A DNA stretch of 62,367 bases, counting the filler. It is 14 parts of 14 records of this genome, joined end to end, with 100 filler letters (N's around TTAATTAATTAA, not from the genome) between each part and the next. Parts side by side here need not be neighbours in the genome. Positions count along the whole stretch, not along the records: positions 4,874 to 12,016 come from SRR9188676_2392; 13 more parts are not named here. One strand, written 5' to 3'. The position numbers and the translations under genes were made by a program. The notes under the pieces are model-generated. The model was not told the DNA's origin. It saw nothing but the letters and a program-made list of their open reading frames with translations, and did no database searches. Below, piece after piece: positions 4,774 through 12,217 of the stretch; positions within the stretch are counted from its first letter, which is position 1; every line of letters begins with the position of its first letter.

Positions 4774-4873
4774 NNNNNNNNNNNNNNNNNNNNNNNNNNN
4801 NNNNNNNNNNNNNNNNNTTAATTAATTAANNNNNNNNNNNNNNNNNNNNNNNNNNNNNNNNNNNNNNNNNNNN
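4774..4873. other. Artificial contig linker (N44-TTAATTAATTAA-N44). Identical linkers at 12017-12116, 15180-15279, 19599-19698, 29657-29756, 33819-33918, 36654-36753, 40455-40554, 42957-43056, 46269-46368, 48463-48562, 53965-54064, 58769-58868
   Basis: The same 100-nt N-padded palindrome with stop codons in all frames recurs 13 times. Base composition and gene type change abruptly at most junctions. Confidence 0.98.
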
Positions 4874-5980
4874 GTTGTACTGGCTGTGCGCGGTGTTGCG
4901 GATATCGCCGGTGTGATCGGCCTTGACCTGCACCGCGAACTGCATGGCGATGGAGGCATTGCGCGCGAGGGCTGTGGGCACGCCGATGGCCACTTCGATC
5001 GCCGCGCCGTCTTCGGCGGTGCGGTAGCTGAAGTCGGCGTCGCCGGGCATGCGGAACAGGCGCACCGCGCCGGCCGCCGTGCTCTGCAGGCTGCCAGCGA
5101 GGTAGCGGGTGCCCGTGGGCACGAGGTCGCGCAGCAGCAGCAGGCTGCGCGGGCTGCCGTTGACGAGCACCTGCGTGCCGGTGGGCGCGGCCGCGCCGCC
5201 GGGCTGCGCGTCGCGCGCGCCGGTGTTGGTGCCCGAGATGCTGAAGTCGATGCGCGTGCTGCCGGGCACGACGGCCCCCGCATGGCTGGCCGACTTGACC
5301 AGCGCGAGCACGGCGACGCTGCCCACGTCCACCGTGTCGCGATTGCTCGCGCTCGCGCCCTGCAGGGCGGTGGTCGCGCTCAGCACCACGCAGGCACTGC
5401 CGCTGGCCGCGGCGGGAATGGTGCCCTGCACCAGCAGTTCGGCCGTCTGGCCCGGCTCCAGCGCGAGCGTGCCGGCGGCACCGGGCAGCAGCACCAGATC
5501 GGAGGCGTCGACGACGCCGTTGTGGTTGGCGTCGCGCGCCACGCGCAACACTGACAGGTCGAGCCCGTCGGCCGGGCACCCCGCGCCGTCGTTGACGAGC
5601 CCCAGGGTGTAGCGCGAAGCCACGTTGCCGGTGTTGGTGAGCAGGTGGCTCAGCGTGACGACGGTCCCGGGCGGGCGGTTCACGCGCTGGTCCTGCGTGA
5701 GCGACAGCGCCTCCACGGGCAACACGCTGGCCGTCACGGCATTGGAGATGGCCGTCTCGCTGCGGTCGAGGCCGGCCGGGACGTAGGTGCCCGTCGCGAT
5801 GCTGCGGATCACGACGCCGCCGGGCGCGGGCGCCGCCTGCGCGACCGGTGCGAAGAGCATGGCGAGTGCCACTGCGGTGGCGAGTGCGAGGCCAAAGGCC
5901 GCCATCGCGCTGCGCGCGAACGCCACGCAGCCCCACCAGCGAGGCATGCCGGCACGCGAAGAAGAAAGAAGAAATGGCAC
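4874..5980 (-). CDS. Secreted DUF11/Ig-fold surface protein (third gene of operon), 3' truncated by contig end
   Basis: Probable GTG start at 5980 after GAGGGAAGG. Signal peptide ends ...APVAQA. N-terminal APGGVVIRSIATGTY...SNAVTASV segment, HLLTNTGN strand, DANHNGVVD Ca-type motif, then a complete DUF11-like domain (LALVKSA...RDLVPTGTRYL...QFAVQV...IRNTA). Confidence 0.85.
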
Positions 5981-6196
5981 GCGGTGAACCTTCCCTCGCA
6001 CCTCCCGCTGCGGGAGACACGTCAAACAGTCGAAGAACTCTTTCCTCTGCCGCCTCGAAGGCCGGCAAGGCACGGCTTGCATGCAGCGATGTGCGCGAAA
6101 GCGGCAGGGGAAACAGGCGAGGCACCGGGGCGAACCCGGGCCTCGCGGGAAACGGCCGACGGCCCTTGCGGAACCGTCGGCGGCGCCGATGTCAGA

Positions 6197-9094
6197 TCAG
6201 GGGTTGATCTGCACGGCGAAGGTCAGCGTGACCTTTCCTCCCGGGGCCACGGTGTTGGCCGCGCTGCCGCAGCTCACCGCGGTGGCGGTCGATGCGAAGG
6301 CCGGCGCCGTACCGCCAATGCCCGGGGCTTCGCACTGCAATGCAGGCTGCTTCGCGCTCAGGACGGTGTACGCCGGCAGTGCGTCGTTGATGGCGATGTT
6401 GGTCACCGGCACGACGCCTTCGTTGGTGGCAACGACCTGGTAGACGATGCACTGGCCGGGCTTCAACTGCAGCGACGTTGCCGCGAGCGCGGTGTCCGCC
6501 ACGCCGTCGCAAGTCGCGTCGGCCGCCTGCGTCTTGAGGACGCGGATCTGGCCGGTGATCACGGCCGTGATGTCGGTGGCCGAAGGCGTACCGCAGTTGG
6601 GGGCCGGGTCGGTGAAGGTGGCCGTCACCGTCGTGGTGTTGCTGACACCCGCGCTCACGCCGCCCGGCGCGAACACGCGCACCAGCAGCTTCTGCGTCGC
6701 ACCTGCCGGCAGGCTTGCCAGCGGACCGTTCACCGGCGTGTCGCCGGCATCGATCTGGCCGTCGCCGTTGACGTCGAGGTAGACCGTGGTGGTCCAGCCT
6801 TGCGCCGCATCCGCCGCGGGCACCGTGGCTGTCAGCGTGTACGCGCCGCAGCTCTGGGCGCCGATGTTGGTCAGCGTGTGGGCATACACCACGGTGCCGC
6901 CGGGCGCGACCTGGCCGTTGTTGTTCGGCGTGAGCGAGGCGCCCAGTTGCAGCGCCGTCGAGGTCACCGTCACGGCGTCGGTCTTGACGTCGGACGCGAT
7001 GCCGCCGGTCGAGGCCACCGCGGTGGATTGCACCTTGAAGTAGATCTTCACTGCAGTGACTGCGGCTTGCGAGGAAGGCGGCGTGACGCACGCTTCGACC
7101 GCCTGCTGTCCCCCGGCGATGACCGCGAGGTTTGAGATGGCCGGCGATGCACAGGTGCCGCCAAACGCCACGAACTTGACCGTCCAGCCTGCTGGCAGCG
7201 CGCCCGGGAAACCGGTCGTCTGGCTGGCGGCAAGGTTGTAGGTCGCGTCGACCACGTCGTGGTTCTTCACCCACAGCGTGAAGACCGTGCCGGTGCCGGC
7301 CCCCGTGTCGTGGACCTGCGTCGGCAACGGGCTGGGACCCGCGCCGAGGTCACCGTTGGCGACGCTGCCGGTGCCTGTACCGATCTTCGTATTGGTCAAG
7401 TCAACCAGGGTCTCGATCACGCGCTCGAGGCGGTCTTCGGTCGCATCGATCTTCGTGTTGTCGCCCACGGAACGACCGAGCACGGTGGCCACGTAGGCGC
7501 CGCCCACGGTGGACGGCGGCAGTTGCACCTGCGTCACGATGTTGAAGCTCGCGCCAGCCGGGATCGGACCGGTGTCGGGCACGCCGTCACCGTTCGTGTC
7601 CAGCAGCGGTGCGCCGGTGTCTGCCGCGAAGAACTGGAAGCTCGTGCCGGCCGGGAAGGTGTTGGCGGAGATCGACAGGTTCACGGCATCGGTCGCGCCG
7701 CCCGTGTTGAACACGGTTTGCGGGAACCGGACGCTGCTGCCTGCGACGGCCAACTGCCTCGTGGTCAGGTCTTGCCCAGCGGGGTTGGGCGTGCCGGGTG
7801 TTGCGTCGAGTGCCGTTGCAGCCGTGGACGGGTTGGACCCCACCACGATGCCGAAACGCGCCAGGACGGTGTACGCCGACGGGTTGGAGGTGGAACCGAC
7901 CGTGCCGATCAACGCTGCGGTCACGCCAGCCGGCGCGTTCACGGGGTTGTAGCGGGCCACGTTGGTGGTGGTGGACGTACCGACCGCCGCGGTGCTGTTC
8001 ACGAGCACCACGAAGCTCAGCGTTTGCGTCACGTTCGGATTCAGCGACGCCACCACGGCATTCAGCGTGTTGCCAGTCGCCTGGAAGTCGATGCCCGACG
8101 GATCGCCGCCTGCACCGTCACCCAGCGCCGTACCCGACGCACCGCTCCACACTGCCGAGCCCGTGACGTAGGTCAACCCTGCCGGCAACACATCGGACAG
8201 CGCGAACTTGCCCGGTGCGCCACCCGTGTTGTTGAACGTGAGGGTGTAGACCGAGTACTGGCAGTTCGCGTTCGACGCGAGACCGGCTGTCCAGCTCGTG
8301 GCCGTGCAGGCGGCGGAAGAGCGCGGCCCACTGGTCGGCGCGGTCGGCCAGACGCCGTTGCCCGGTGCCGCGACCGACGGAGTGCCGATGACCTTGGTGA
8401 GGTTGAACACCGCATCGGTGGCCAGCTTGACCTCGTCCTTGTCGGCCGCCGAGGTGTTCGGCGCGGTGTACAGCGCCGGAGTGCCCGGGGTGGCGGTGAT
8501 CGTTGCGGCATCGAAGTTGCCGGTGCCGGTGGCTGAGCCCGGGATCGTGTAGGCCACGACGAAGCGGAACGCGCCGTTGTTGCCGGGCACGCTCTGCGCC
8601 GGGGTCACCGTGCAGACGTTCGCATCGGTGGCCGAGCACAGCGCCGTCGTGCTGTCGGGCAGCCCGTTGCCGTCGGCATCGGCAAAGACCTCGACACGCG
8701 AGAACTTGCCCGCATCGGCCTTGACCGTGAGGGCGAAGGTGTCGACGCCGTTGCCGGTGTTGGTCAGCACGTGAGGCGCATAGACCGTGGCGCCGGCCGC
8801 GCCGGACTTGGTGTTGACGATGGTCGTCGTCACCTGGTTGACGCTGTCGAGCGTGAACGAGCCCACCTGGAGAACAGTGGTCTGCACCAGGTTGGAGGTG
8901 GCGACCTGGGTCGTCCCGGCAGCGTCCGAATAGCTGGCGGACGCCTGGTTGCCGATGACGGTGTTGGCGGGCGGCGACGCGGCAAATGCAGCCGGGCTTC
9001 CGAAAAGGAAGCCCAGCGTCAACGCTGCGGCGCCTGCCCAGGGCGCGCACGGCTTGCAGCCGCTGGCGCGTTGGGTTGGCTGGGTGGGAATCAC
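6197..9094 (-). CDS. Large secreted multi-Ig/DUF11 repeat protein (putative major fibre or adhesin subunit)
   Basis: Likely GTG start at 9094 with AGAGGAG RBS (ORF open from 9130). Signal peptide ends ...PAAFA. Thr/Ala/Gly/Val-rich beta-sandwich repeats with TNTG/NNTG/TNIG/TNEG strands, two DUF11-type domains (LSDVLPAGLTYV; INDALPAYT), three Dx[DN]G[DN]GxxD Ca-binding motifs, paired Cys. Confidence 0.9.
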   Translation of the reverse strand: MIPTQPTQRASGCKPCAPWAGAAALTLGFLFGSPAAFAASPPANTVIGNQASASYSDAAGTTQVATSNLVQTTVLQVGSFTLDSVNQVTTTIVNTKSGAAGATVYAPHVLTNTGNGVDTFALTVKADAGKFSRVEVFADADGNGLPDSTTALCSATDANVCTVTPAQSVPGNNGAFRFVVAYTIPGSATGTGNFDAATITATPGTPALYTAPNTSAADKDEVKLATDAVFNLTKVIGTPSVAAPGNGVWPTAPTSGPRSSAACTATSWTAGLASNANCQYSVYTLTFNNTGGAPGKFALSDVLPAGLTYVTGSAVWSGASGTALGDGAGGDPSGIDFQATGNTLNAVVASLNPNVTQTLSFVVLVNSTAAVGTSTTTNVARYNPVNAPAGVTAALIGTVGSTSNPSAYTVLARFGIVVGSNPSTAATALDATPGTPNPAGQDLTTRQLAVAGSSVRFPQTVFNTGGATDAVNLSISANTFPAGTSFQFFAADTGAPLLDTNGDGVPDTGPIPAGASFNIVTQVQLPPSTVGGAYVATVLGRSVGDNTKIDATEDRLERVIETLVDLTNTKIGTGTGSVANGDLGAGPSPLPTQVHDTGAGTGTVFTLWVKNHDVVDATYNLAASQTTGFPGALPAGWTVKFVAFGGTCASPAISNLAVIAGGQQAVEACVTPPSSQAAVTAVKIYFKVQSTAVASTGGIASDVKTDAVTVTSTALQLGASLTPNNNGQVAPGGTVVYAHTLTNIGAQSCGAYTLTATVPAADAAQGWTTTVYLDVNGDGQIDAGDTPVNGPLASLPAGATQKLLVRVFAPGGVSAGVSNTTTVTATFTDPAPNCGTPSATDITAVITGQIRVLKTQAADATCDGVADTALAATSLQLKPGQCIVYQVVATNEGVVPVTNIAINDALPAYTVLSAKQPALQCEAPGIGGTAPAFASTATAVSCGSAANTVAPGGKVTLTFAVQINP

Positions 9095-9256
9095 GTAGTT
9101 TTCTCCTCTGTTGTCGATGAACGGGAACACGAAAGAACCTGGCGGATACGTTTCGACGGGCGAACGCGTACCTGCCGACTGGCACTCAGAAACAAGAGAT
9201 CGATGGAAAAGGCGGGCGCCCTCGCCTCGCGCAGCGCGCGAGGGCCGGCGCGGCCT

Positions 9257-9880
9257 TTACTTGCCGCGCGGGGGCGGCGTGGCGGGCGTGGCGGGCGCAG
9301 CCGTTGGCGGTGCGACGGCTTCAACCTTGGCGCGCGCGCTCACGGCGATGCTGCCGCTGGCAGGCAACTGGCCCAGGCTCCAGCGCAGCATGCGGTACTC
9401 GCTGTAGGGAACGGGTTCGGTCTTGCCGCTGGCCAGCTTGCGAACAAGCGGCTCGGGCTCGAAGACGGCGGTCTTGGTGGCGGCTTTCACGAGGCTGGCG
9501 CCTGGCTTGGCGCTGCGCGGCAGGTATTCCAGCCCCTCGGGGATCGGCAGATCGGCCACGAGGCCCTTGACCGGTTTGCCCGTGTTGTTGGTGTAGGTGG
9601 CCTTGTATTCGATGACGTCACCCGGCTTGATGGTGGCCGCGTCCTGGAACTGTTCATTGCCGTCGGGCCCCTTGACCACCTTCGACTGGGCGAGGACGAC
9701 GGTCACGGCCTGGGTCGCGGCAGGTGCGCGCGACGCCTCCAGCGAAGCGGTGGGTTGCGCGAACGCGACGGTCGCGGCGCCTGCGGCAAGCAGGACCAGG
9801 CCTGCGCGGATCAGCGGGTGGACCGCCCCTGCGCGGCCTCGCGACGACGACAAGAACAAGTCCCATGTGGATGCTGTCAT
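9257..9880 (-). CDS. Small secreted single DUF11-like domain protein (first gene of operon)
   Basis: Signal peptide ends ...TVAFA. KPGDVIEYKATYTNNTG...DLPIPEGLEYLP...LRWSLGQLPASGSIAVSARAKV is a DUF11-like core, followed only by a Pro/Ala tail. Confidence 0.85.
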   Translation of the reverse strand: MTASTWDLFLSSSRGRAGAVHPLIRAGLVLLAAGAATVAFAQPTASLEASRAPAATQAVTVVLAQSKVVKGPDGNEQFQDAATIKPGDVIEYKATYTNNTGKPVKGLVADLPIPEGLEYLPRSAKPGASLVKAATKTAVFEPEPLVRKLASGKTEPVPYSEYRMLRWSLGQLPASGSIAVSARAKVEAVAPPTAAPATPATPPPRGK

Positions 9881-10450
9881 TCAAACCCCAATTAACAATA
9901 TTTGAAATTCATGTCGCAAAATTTGCAATCAACTTCTTATTGCAAACAAATAGCCAACATTGCTTGCAATCGAAGGCAATCGGCCACTTGGATTTTGCGT
10001 ACTGAATTCTTATGTCTCGGGGCTTTTATGGCAATCAAACAAAAGAACAGAGGATGCGCAAATGAGACATATTGAACAAACAAAATGCATCCACCATTTC
10101 ATTCGACCTGAAGCCCTCTCAATTGAAGCTTTCAAGCTTCTGGGAGAGTCAAAACAATTGAGAGCGAATGACAACAACAGCAACCCCAGGCGAACCCCTA
10201 TTCGTGAAATAATATTTTCAATGAATTCAAACTCATAGAATTAATTTGAAACCACTCATTCGATGCGGCACAAGAAATTATTCATCGATGAATTTCTGAG
10301 AAATCCCGGCGACCAAAAAAAATATCCAACTCACAAAGAATCTAGTAAAGATGAGTGCTTGCCCACCCGTTTTTCATCACTCATTCACGTCGCCTCGAAT
10401 CACAGGCTCTTGATTTCAATTCAGGCGTTCTACTGATTGAATCCAGAGAT
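9881..10450. promoter_or_regulatory. AT-rich upstream/control region of the DUF11 operon
   Basis: Sharp local drop in GC relative to the very GC-rich flanks. No credible CDS. Lies between divergent transcription units. Confidence 0.6.
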
Positions 10451-10769
10451 TCCACGGCAATTCCTCGCTGCGCCCGTAGGGCCATAATTGGCCAATCTGG
10501 CCAGAATCCCCTACACTCGCGGCCCATGGCTCTCCTCTCGCCCCGTCGATACCCTGCGCGCGCAGCCCTGCCCATGGCAGCGGCCGGTCGTCGTGTGGGC
10601 GCCGTCGTCGCGGCGGCCACGTCGGTCCTCCGACGCACGTCCGCACATTCCTGAGCCCGGCGGTCCGCTACCTTCTTCTTGATGCGCACACCTTGACCGC
10701 CGGGCACCACACCGCGCGGTAGCGACCCTGTCTGTTGGAAAGGCGGGTTGCGTTCATCTGGAGTGCTTC

Positions 10770-11171
10770 ATGCTTTCAACCGTTCACGGGGAGCGCACGC
10801 TCACCGAACTCGATTACGTCCGTCTCAGCAAATTCGCGGACACGCCGCTTCCTCCGGCCCTGGTCGATCTGCTCGACACGGCCGACATCCTTCCGTCACG
10901 GGAAATGCCCTCGGACATCGTGACGATGTACACCCAGGTGGAAATCGAAGACCTGCCCGCCGGACAGCGGCAGAAGATCGTGATCTGCTATCCCGCCGAT
11001 GCGAACCCGACCACGGGCTTCATCTCGGTGTTCTCGCCCGTCGGCATCGGCCTGCTGGGCCAGAAGACCGGCGCGGTCGCGCGCTGGAAGACGCCCGGCG
11101 GCGGCGAACACAGCGCGCGCGTGATCGCCGTGCTGTTCCAGCCGGAAGCCAGCGGCGACTACACGACCTGA
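10770..11171 (+). CDS. rnk: Regulator of nucleoside diphosphate kinase (GreA/GreB C-terminal-like)
   Basis: 133 aa. LTELDYVRL, DIVTMYT, ICYPADA, ISVFSPVGIGLLG and VLFQPEASG match Rnk motifs. GGAG RBS upstream. Confidence 0.88.
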   Translation: MLSTVHGERTLTELDYVRLSKFADTPLPPALVDLLDTADILPSREMPSDIVTMYTQVEIEDLPAGQRQKIVICYPADANPTTGFISVFSPVGIGLLGQKTGAVARWKTPGGGEHSARVIAVLFQPEASGDYTT

Positions 11172-11214
11172 AAGTGCGCCGGTTCAGGCCGGAGGCCGGC
11201 GCCCCACCGGCCGG

Positions 11215-11445
11215 TCAGTGCTGCAGCACGCCGGCGACGCCGGGGCCCCTGCTCTTCGCACTGTCGATGGTCGCGCTGACGGAACTCGTGTTGACCGCCA
11301 GCGCCACCAGCACCGCCCCCACGAACGACGGATCGGCGCTGCCGCTGTAGCCCGACGCCCCGGCAATGGCCAGGGCCTGCGCGACCTGCTGCGTCGTCAG
11401 TTCGACGGCGGCTTCTCCCACGATATTCCTCTTCTTTGTGGCCAT
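11215..11445 (-). CDS. Small hypothetical protein (76 aa)
   Basis: ATG at 11445 preceded by CAGGAG RBS. GC3-biased codons. MATKKRNIVGEAAVELTTQQVAQALAIAG... Confidence 0.65.
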   Translation of the reverse strand: MATKKRNIVGEAAVELTTQQVAQALAIAGASGYSGSADPSFVGAVLVALAVNTSSVSATIDSAKSRGPGVAGVLQH

Positions 11446-11623
11446 CTGAAAACTCCTGCGAATGGAGTTCGGACTGTAACCAAGCCCCGACAAGCGCCAC
11501 AAATGTTCCTGACCCTGTGACTTTCGACACTGGCCCGCGCATCGGGCGGCCCGTATCGTCGCGCGGGCGCGGCGCCCGCCGGTGGGGCGGACGCCACATT
11601 GTTTTCATTTGATGGACAGGGAC

Positions 11624-12016
11624 ATGCCTTTTTCCAAACTCTCTCTCGCCAGCGCACTCGCGGGCCTGCTCGCGCTTTCCGGTTGCCAGACCATGGACAT
11701 GCAGATGGGCGCTCCGGCGGCCAAGACCACGGCCACGGGCAGCGCCGCCGGCGGCGCCACCTCGGGCGAGAGCAGCCAGCTCGAACGCTGCGACTCGCCG
11801 CTCGGTACCGTCTCGCTGATCGAGAACGTCAATGCCGGCTGGTACACCATCCTCACCGGTGAATACCGCCTGCCGCCCACGGCCAACCTGCTGCGCCTGC
11901 TGGTGCAGCAGTCGAACTGCTTCGTGGTGGTCGAGCGCGGCGCGGCCGGCATGAACGCCATGACGCGCGAGCGCGCGCTGATGCAATCGGGCGAGATGCG
12001 CGGCGGCAGCAACTTC
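11624..12016 (+). CDS. CsgG/HfaB-family outer-membrane lipoprotein, 3' truncated
   Basis: Lipobox LALSGC, then LERCDSPLGTV...LLRLLVQQSNCFVVVERG...MTRERALMQSGE, typical of CsgG-like proteins (FxVVER motif). Confidence 0.8.
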
Positions 12017-12217
12017 NNNNNNNNNNNNNNNNNNNNNNNNNNNNNNNNNNNNNNNNNNNNTTAATTAATTAANNNNNNNNNNNNNNNNNNNNNNNNNNNN
12101 NNNNNNNNNNNNNNNNGTTCGAGTCCCCGCAGCTCCAGTTTTTTTTAAATAACATATTTTTATTTTTATTTTTCTCTGATAATATTTTCCTGTCTCCCGC
12201 TTCCTTTTATTTTTCAG

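Follow-up and report, generated by a model that had tools for sequence, protein, structure and literature searches.

The minus strand of a Variovorax contig at positions 4874-12016 of the 62,367-nucleotide stretch of DNA analysed here (the window) carries three genes for putatively secreted proteins, which we call g1, g2 and g3, and we propose that their products build an outer-membrane-anchored modular fibre, a 'split fibrillar adhesin', whose parts are joined by trans-complementation of a split CLIPPER isopeptide domain. We put the probability of this reading at roughly 60%. Support from the sequences and the models extends to the split and its conservation, to how the two halves fit, to gene synteny and to the barrel-like C-terminus of g3. 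The contig is ~98% identical to Variovorax boronicumulans, and its g2 shares 98% identity with the g2 protein from V. boronicumulans NBRC 103145 (locus L001). An earlier description, made from the letters of this stretch and referred to below as the sequence-only reading, had reported a truncated domain in g1, donor segments in g2 and g3, a Ser in place of an Asn in the g3 segment, and a complete DUF11 domain inside g3, and all of these features are present in the sequence.

The g2 protein carries two halves of a CLIPPER domain at its opposite ends

According to the available part of the survey that describes it, the CLIPPER domain has a CnaA-like fold in which a spontaneous isopeptide bond links a Lys in the first strand to an Asn in the penultimate strand with the assistance of an Asp, and in the solved domain 9IFR the residues of the bond that joins these two strands are Lys715, Asp748 and Asn806 (PMC12617251). 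The g2 protein (977 residues; 6197..9130, minus strand, as are all features of g1, g2 and g3 given below) consists of tandem Ig-like domains and contains both a donor and an acceptor half of such a domain. The donor is a hairpin formed by residues 51-88 (8867..8980), placed right after an AxA signal-peptide site that was judged by eye, and it contains the proposed isopeptide residue, Asn61 (nt 8948-8950). The acceptor is the C-terminal domain, residues 857-977 (6200..6562), which is without its last two strands and contains Lys866 (nt 6533-6535) and Asp916 (nt 6383-6385); the protein ends one residue past the last strand of this domain. A complete CLIPPER domain is also present within g2 (residues 237-423, with Lys246, Asp313 and Asn390; 7862..8422), and when this part of the g2 model was compared with 9IFR using VIA-align, 120 of 123 residues were aligned (Z 11.6, root-mean-square deviation (rmsd) 2.5), identifying a CnaA-like fold. 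The whole protein scored 40.9 bits on TIGR01451 (cut-off 24) and 21.6 bits on Pfam DUF11, below the cut-off of 24.6. An AlphaFold2 model of it, with a mean predicted local distance difference test score (pLDDT) of 88.8 and a predicted template modelling score (pTM) of 0.72, contained hairpin strands at residues 58-61, 63-68, 74-78 and 82-86, and Foldseek returned generic tandem-Ig proteins only when searched with this model.

A HMMER search with g2 returned 1,537 representatives at E<=1e-3, with 428 at E<=1e-30. From the 150 representatives listed, the 125 that were 800-1060 residues long were kept and 25 fragments or fusions were dropped, giving an alignment of 126 sequences once g2 was included. 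Asn61 was found in 118 of the 126 rows, Asn80 in 122 and Asp916 in 120, while Ser79 was present in all of them (126/126), and Lys866 was present in 92 of the 94 rows that were ungapped at this position. In the aligned rows shown, the hairpin lies a few residues past the signal-peptide site, and 119 of the 126 proteins stop 0-2 residues beyond the last strand. Judged by this alignment, the division into a donor hairpin and a truncated C-terminus is a conserved feature of the family, and no product of chance.

The relation of the two halves to a whole domain was evaluated with a 136-column profile of the complete CLIPPER domain, for which g3 residues 945-1080 were combined with 120 homologues. 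Columns 7-101 are covered by the g2 C-terminal profile (probability 97%, E 9e-11), with Lys aligned on Lys and Asp on Asp, and the best local match of the hairpin profile is to columns 102-133, with Asn61 aligned on the Asn of the complete domain. A hidden Markov model based on a single orthologous complete domain proved too narrow for the hairpin to be detected, and profile-profile comparison was used instead. Lys866 and Asp916 of the acceptor and Asn61 of the donor are thus both conserved and aligned with the CLIPPER triad, and the CnaA-like fold of the split terminal domain was assigned by profile alignment alone. When the complete g3 domain was compared with 9IFR, its triad Asn fell on the only nearby Asn of that structure.

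We then used complex prediction, in which g2 residues 850-977 and g2 residues 51-238 were folded together without alignments. The hairpin was placed in the C-terminal domain with an interaction prediction score from aligned errors (ipSAE) of 0.90 in three of three runs, compared with 0.00 for the best of three controls; in the benchmark stated by the tool, the mark for this score is reached by 51 of 78 solved complexes and by 2 of 108 mismatched pairs. At least 93% of contacts were common to the runs, and the partner had a pLDDT of 94. The interface involves residues 51-53, 57, 59-70, 72, 75, 77-87 and 89 on the hairpin side, and residues 860-868, 884-891, 895-901, 907-922 and 961-977 on the acceptor side; the latter take in the Lys866-bearing first strand, the Asp916 strand and the last strands. 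Lys866 had its best-defined contacts with Ser79, Asn80 and Val82, as would be expected if the first and last strands pair. Together, the tiling of the profile columns and the docking fit the donor and acceptor logic that the sequence-only reading had proposed.

The other proteins of the cluster are one-sided

The g3 gene is cut by the contig end, and its first 403 residues are contained in the window (4874..6082; likely start Met46, nt 5945-5947). The donor hairpin of g3, residues 84-122 (5717..5833), is homologous to that of g2 and keeps the Ser113-Asn114 pair, and Ser94 (nt 5801-5803) occupies the position of g2 Asn61. An internal complete CLIPPER-like domain, with Lys263, Asp319 and Asn396, was read from the sequence, starting at residue 261 (4874..5302). 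Pfam gave no match for the 403-residue fragment; the full-length g3 of L001 (P0001; 2,441 residues, with relatives of ~2,440) matched DUF11 (PF01345, 59.4 bits) and DUF7507.

To tally the residue at the donor Asn position, 120 g3 homologues were listed and 10 without a Met start were dropped, and 6 of the remaining 110 rows look misaligned. Asn was present in 58 of the 110, and was replaced by Ser (23), Val (10), Thr (8), Ala (5), Gly (4), Met (1) or a gap (1), at a site whose neighbours Ala96 (107), Tyr100 (105), Ser113 (107) and Asn114 (106) are kept. Among 18 close g3 orthologues 14 have Asn, and the proteins of the window, L001 and L020 have Ser. Both g3 copies of V. boronicumulans have Ser at this position. 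Accordingly, the absence of Asn from the g3 donor is real in this strain and the position is relaxed, but it is no defining trait of g3, and the non-covalent docking that had been proposed for g3 would be a frequent option rather than a general rule.

In relatives, the remainder of g3 consists of further Ig-like domains followed by a C-terminal beta-barrel module. An AlphaFold2 model of the last 1,113 residues (43 sequences in the alignment, pLDDT 71.4, pTM 0.55) contained two Ig-like domains, which matched invasin and intimin in VIA-align (Z 11-12), and then ~35 antiparallel strands, each 10-16 residues long. A beta-sandwich of ~125 residues interrupts the predicted barrel after its third strand (P0001 residues ~1651-1776, model residues 323-448), which in the model recalls the plug domain of ushers. 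The solved chains nearest to the strand region include the usher FimD (6e14_D; Z 12.7, rmsd 7.4, 313 residues aligned, model residues 321-796), SlpA (Z 11.9) and porins (Z 10-11). No specific barrel family was found when Foldseek was run with this model, a sequence search gave a weak match to a Vibrio porin (E 5e-4), and no autotransporter family in Pfam or NCBIfam matched full-length g3. An OmpA domain (PF00691) was detected at the extreme C-terminus of all four g3 homologues scanned (4/4), and many further listed homologues carry OmpA; the closest full-length orthologue, P0001, is without this domain, and the window g3 is cut before the region. We predict from the model that the g3 C-terminus is a giant outer-membrane beta-barrel anchor, so that the earlier expectation of an envelope module in the missing part of g3 was right in kind, with a barrel-like model of ~35 strands and OmpA in many homologues.

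The g1 protein (207 residues; 9257..9880) has a signal peptide, judged by eye, one truncated CLIPPER/DUF11 domain (residues 58-186; nt 9323-9709) that contains Lys67 (nt 9680-9682) and Asp110 (nt 9551-9553), and a Pro/Ala-rich tail. It has no N-terminal hairpin, and so consists of a receiving half-domain only. It scored 26.5 bits on TIGR01451, above the cut-off of 24, and 18.5 bits on Pfam DUF11 (PF01345), below the cut-off of 24.6, and a protein atlas query with g1 returned 'DUF11/hypothetical' clusters only. In profile comparisons, the g1 family spans columns 8 to ~101 of the 136-column complete domain, and also aligns with the entire g2 C-terminal domain, through its last residue. Among 125 members of the g1 family, Lys67 is conserved in 116 and Asp110 in 79 (replaced by Asn in 32, Thr in 9 and others in 5), and Pro112 and Pro114 are invariant (125/125). 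On these sequences, g1 would be either a reversible escort or a cap, which could be covalent in proteins that have the Asp, such as that of the window.

In relatives, a fourth gene, g4, which is absent from the window, directly follows g3. The g4 protein of locus L025 (1,279 residues) combines a signal peptide and a hairpin-free, Cys-rich N-terminal part with SpaA_4 and DUF11 domains, and its C-terminal domain contains the Lys and Asp and stops at the same strand as that of g2; the two other complete examples (L002 and L041) have the same type of C-terminal end. A large gene on the same strand follows g3 in 16 of the 16 loci that reach that far, although its sequence varies. Beyond g4 in L025 are unrelated genes, for a WXXGXW protein and a TonB-dependent receptor. 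The g4 protein is thus large and acceptor-only, and is probably the tip. The operon therefore shows complementary sidedness, since g3 has a donor and no acceptor, and g1 and g4 have acceptors and no hairpin.

The gene order is conserved across genomes

In our genome scan, g1, g2 and g3 were found in this order in 19 of 22 loci. Two of the remaining loci, L021 and L022, are cut by contig ends, and the third, L017 of Xenophilus aerolatus, is without g3. Within 10001-13000 of L017, the g2 homologue loses the family C-terminus ~25 residues before its end and continues into unrelated sequence, and this copy of the operon looks broken or rearranged. A g2 match at E<=1e-20 was present in 6 of 201 genomes sampled evenly from the same class, and six regions from four of these 6 genomes were compared for gene order. 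The order g1-g2-g3 was found in four of the six regions, namely L038, L039 and L040, which are from distant genomes and have 28-39% identity to the window proteins, and L043, a second V. boronicumulans locus; L042 contained g2-g3, and L041 contained g2-g4. The co-occurrence of the three genes is therefore upheld in both surveys, and the three-gene operon stands as far as the order of g1, g2 and g3 is concerned, but not as a complete unit, because the acceptor-only g4 follows g3 in relatives. The g2 family ranges over soil and plant-associated Burkholderiales, and also includes Moraxellaceae.

Two paralogous g1-g2-g3 clusters can be present in one genome, as seen with L043 (G001:C89) and with L005 and L014, which lie on one V. 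paradoxus chromosome. In L039 (G102:C65), from a distant genome, the order is g1-g2a-g3-g2b, followed by a large further open reading frame (ORF), so that two shaft-type genes flank the anchor gene.

Proposed assembly and alternative explanations

In the assembly that we propose, all parts carry Sec signal peptides, as judged by eye. The g3 protein would be the base, with its barrel in the outer membrane, a long Ig-like stalk, and the N-terminal hairpin at the far end, and the OmpA domain of many g3 homologues would bind peptidoglycan. Each donor would be a beta-hairpin at the extreme N-terminus of the mature protein, and each acceptor a C-terminal CLIPPER domain without its last two beta-strands. 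The g2 protein would form an extendable shaft, with an acceptor that receives a hairpin from g3 or from a further g2, and the last free hairpin would be closed by g4 or g1, with g1 either sealing or escorting it. At the g2-g2 joint, Lys866 and Asp916 would be supplied by the acceptor and Asn61 by the donor, and since the CLIPPER triad would be rebuilt there, the joint probably locks covalently without an enzyme. Because of the Ser at the Asn position of the g3 hairpin in this strain, the basal joint would be non-covalent. More generally, the sequences suggest that the shaft junction keeps the full triad, and that the basal and g1 junctions would often be unable to form the bond. Export might take place through the g3 barrel, which is a guess resting on its likeness to FimD. 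The covalent bond, polymerisation, the order of the parts, the export route and the role of g1 are the steps that we infer.

Several observations weigh against this reading. Taken alone, the hairpin profile match is weak (E 0.09, probability 0.6%), and is notable because it tiles exactly, with no overlap, with the match of the C-terminal domain. The residue count in 9IFR is one off from the published Asp-Asn spacing. The high docking score may reflect merely the fit of two halves of a known fold. The g3 barrel model is of moderate confidence, and its match to FimD is just 1-2 Z units over generic porins. The L017 locus combines g1 with a g2 of altered C-terminus and has no g3 within 10 kb, and the intergenic gaps g1-g2 and g2-g3 are each >110 bp.

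The explanation that competes best, although we consider it unlikely, is that the joints form by non-covalent strand complementation, as in chaperone-usher or TasA fibres, and that the Lys, Asp and Asn residues are merely structural. Consistent with this idea, 52 of the 110 g3 homologues lack the Asn and 46 of the 125 g1 homologues lack the Asp, with fold-defining positions retained, so that covalent locking is not universal, and although Asn61 is in the interface, a Lys866-Asn61 contact is not among the contacts reported for the docked halves. However, the triad residues of g2 are kept in 94-98% of the 126 family members and align with the triad of a solved, bond-forming CLIPPER domain, which favours a covalent joint along the shaft.

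The hairpin might instead complete the same g2 molecule in cis, giving a closed, self-capped monomeric adhesin or storage form, with the other genes acting independently. The pTM of the g2 monomer, 0.72, is unusually high for a 977-residue Ig-like chain, and could reflect such a ring closure, with the hairpin docked in cis. Neither conservation nor docking can tell cis from trans, since the docking model indicates that the halves fit, and speaks neither for binding in the cell nor for trans over cis. The composition of the operon is more informative, because the donor-only g3 and the acceptor-only g1 and g4 make sense only with intermolecular pairing, and the order g1-g2-g3 is held down to ~30% identity. 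We therefore regard cis closure as quite improbable, and retain the assembly of g2 with its neighbours in trans.

Least probable is that these are ordinary, independent DUF11 adhesins with degenerate C-terminal Ig domains and an N-terminal motif that acts as a secretion or sorting signal for the g3 barrel. In its favour, the Pfam DUF11 scores of g1 and g2 are below the curated cut-off (18.5 and 21.6 vs 24.6 bits), the two hairpins alone (46 and 42 residues) match no Pfam family at E up to 10, and a conserved motif placed right after the signal peptide might serve as a tag for export. Against it, the two halves add up exactly to a complete domain, they dock at 0.90 compared with 0.00 for controls, and g1, g2 and g4 are truncated at the same strand.

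The contig and its flanking genes

The contig that carries the operon is 7,143 bases long with a guanine-plus-cytosine (GC) content of ~0.66, contains g1 and g2 complete and the start of g3, and is flanked by N spacers around TTAATTAATTAA at 4774-4873 and 12017-12116. Across the whole window GC spans 0.31 to 0.69, with unrelated contigs chained via N runs, and the Variovorax contig does not belong with the low-GC contigs beside it, which makes this a mixed or contaminated assembly.

Upstream of g1 is an AT-rich region (9881..10400, no strand assigned; GC 0.37-0.49, compared with 0.61-0.75 around it), which contains a single sigma-70-like site on the minus strand, at 10034-10006. It is a probable promoter or regulatory region, and may act as a regulated or silenced promoter. 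A terminator scan gave 7 sites where 5.2 were expected, and was uninformative. No Rfam family reached threshold in a scan of the contig; the sole sub-threshold match, to rne-II (15.3 bits vs a cut-off of 50), was dismissed.

Contigs from two RNA-seq libraries of one study (X1 and X2) represent a relative with ~4% differences from the window. One of them extends from 6056 to beyond 10100, and covers the start of g3, g2, g1 and the upstream region, so that g1, g2 and both flanking gaps are contained in one piece, with the g3 part on separate contigs. Fragments in the soil metatranscriptomes X3 and X4 cover parts of the operon stretch only. These contigs are only compatible with transcription, since DNA may occur in such libraries, and a gene-spanning contig does not amount to a single transcript.

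Divergent from g1, positions 10770-11171 (plus strand) encode a 133-residue protein whose C-terminal domain is of the GreA/GreB family (PF01272, E 1.5e-18). The top NCBIfam match of this protein is 'nucleoside diphosphate kinase regulator', under the cut-off of that family, and the gene adjoins the operon solely in the closest relative, L001. Further along, 11582-12016 (plus strand) contains the start of a lipoprotein-like ORF that ends at the contig edge. Pfam matched neither the window fragment nor the longer frame in L001 (294 residues, running off the locus end), and an NCBIfam scan of the fragment was without a match. We considered this lipoprotein as a secretion partner and rejected it, because it has no family match and is a neighbour of the operon only in L001.

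Comparison with known systems

Among the closest known systems is the intramolecular CLIPPER domain, with 9IFR from the Acinetobacter silvestris adhesin B9T28_05395 as the solved example, which has the same fold and the same Lys/Asp/Asn logic. Its host protein resembles the proposed system in being a fibrillar adhesin of a Gram-negative bacterium, with a stalk of CLIPPER domains and an anchor like OmpA. In that adhesin, however, an undivided domain forms its bond inside a single chain, whereas here the terminal domain is split over two polypeptides. In the part of the CLIPPER survey available to us, intramolecular bonds only are described for this domain (PMC12617251).

Two systems outside the outer-membrane bacteria join strand donation to isopeptide chemistry. 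In the accessible text on BsaA of Clostridium perfringens, 'donor-strand exchange and lock' is described, in which an N-terminal segment enters the beta-sheet of the next subunit, and a donor Asn forms a spontaneous intermolecular isopeptide bond with an acceptor Lys, together with an acidic residue of the acceptor (PMC11580942). The proposed g2 joint is alike in its N-terminal insertion, its Asn donor and its Lys and acid acceptor. BsaA differs, as far as that text goes, in having a TasA fold, SipW dependence, a Gram-positive host and one donated strand, without an outer-membrane anchor or a CnaA-like domain. Our search of the cluster for the TasA/camelysin fold and SipW gave only a weak SipW-type match of g1 to TIGR04089 (E 0.0047, 17 bits vs a cut-off of 60), and there was no peptidase gene in the cluster. 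In the archaeal thread built from Saci_0406 and Saci_0405, donor-strand complementation is accompanied by an intermolecular isopeptide bond from the N-terminal amine to Asn57 of subunit n+2, and a neighbouring gene encodes a one-sided subunit proposed as a cap, as stated in the portion of the source at hand (PMC9715654). The thread shares complementation plus isopeptide with our proposal, and differs in bond chemistry and partner (an N-terminal amine, n+2), in fold, and in belonging to an archaeon with no outer membrane (PMC9715654). For haloarchaeal tafi, an order of tip, adapter, core and anchor has been modelled, according to the part of the report available (PMC11821415).

Chaperone-usher pili (FimD/FimC) are similar in that incomplete Ig folds are made whole by a neighbour through its N-terminal extension, that tip, shaft and base follow in order, that an outer-membrane barrel contains an inserted beta-sandwich, as would the g3 barrel according to its model, which resembles FimD, and that a small accessory protein is encoded first. 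In contrast, the donor here is a two-strand hairpin, the gap is in the C-terminal domain of a 977-residue subunit, the predicted g3 barrel has ~35 strands and is fused to a 1,500-residue stalk, and a covalent lock is likely. No match to PapD-like chaperone or usher families was found in g1, g2, g3 or g4 in Pfam and NCBIfam. Classical (type Va) autotransporters have a C-terminal beta-domain of 12 strands, compared with ~35 in the g3 model, and share only the order of passenger and then barrel.

Sortase pili (SpaA, RrgB and BcpA) resemble the proposed fibre in their CnaA/CnaB-type Ig domains, in joints linked covalently through Lys, and in having subunits for tip, shaft and base, and the g2 model matches sortase-type pilins at Z 10-11, but the joint here would be autocatalytic. 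LPXTG is the motif of the C-terminal sorting signal of sortase substrates, and since g2 ends one residue past its last strand, there is no room for such a signal. No sortase family was found in the scanned proteins of the V. boronicumulans locus (L001/L025) or in the scanned window genes. Another parallel is SpyTag/SpyCatcher, in which one piece contains the Lys and a catalytic acid and the other the partner residue, and the pieces reassemble and lock via a Lys-Asp bond. That pair is man-made and has a CnaB fold and Lys-Asp chemistry, whereas the operon would contain a natural CnaA-like split used for fibre building. It was engineered by splitting a CnaB2 domain, as given in the part of the source available (PMC6539128).

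Our literature search, with subscription journals and supplements outside it, turned up no account of this operon or of a CLIPPER domain that is split, and, within the same limits on journals, none of this mode of fibre building in bacteria with an outer membrane. It is possible, though we think the odds are somewhat against it, that the operon represents a widespread and undescribed class of fibre in outer-membrane bacteria, covalent and made without sortase or chaperone-usher machinery, in which a natural, SpyTag/SpyCatcher-like split of the CLIPPER domain sets anchor, shaft, tip and cap by means of half-domains, with export via a barrel of ~35 strands.

If the proposal is true, the operon would represent a new route of fibre assembly in Gram-negative bacteria, one that joins completion of a fold by a neighbour with spontaneous isopeptide locking, a combination so far known only from a matrix protein of a Gram-positive bacterium and from an archaeal thread. 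It would also supply natural, orthogonal 'tag/catcher' pairs for protein engineering, some covalent and some not, given the natural variation at the g3 Asn and the g1 Asp, and would account for the construction of very long adhesins out of interchangeable modules.

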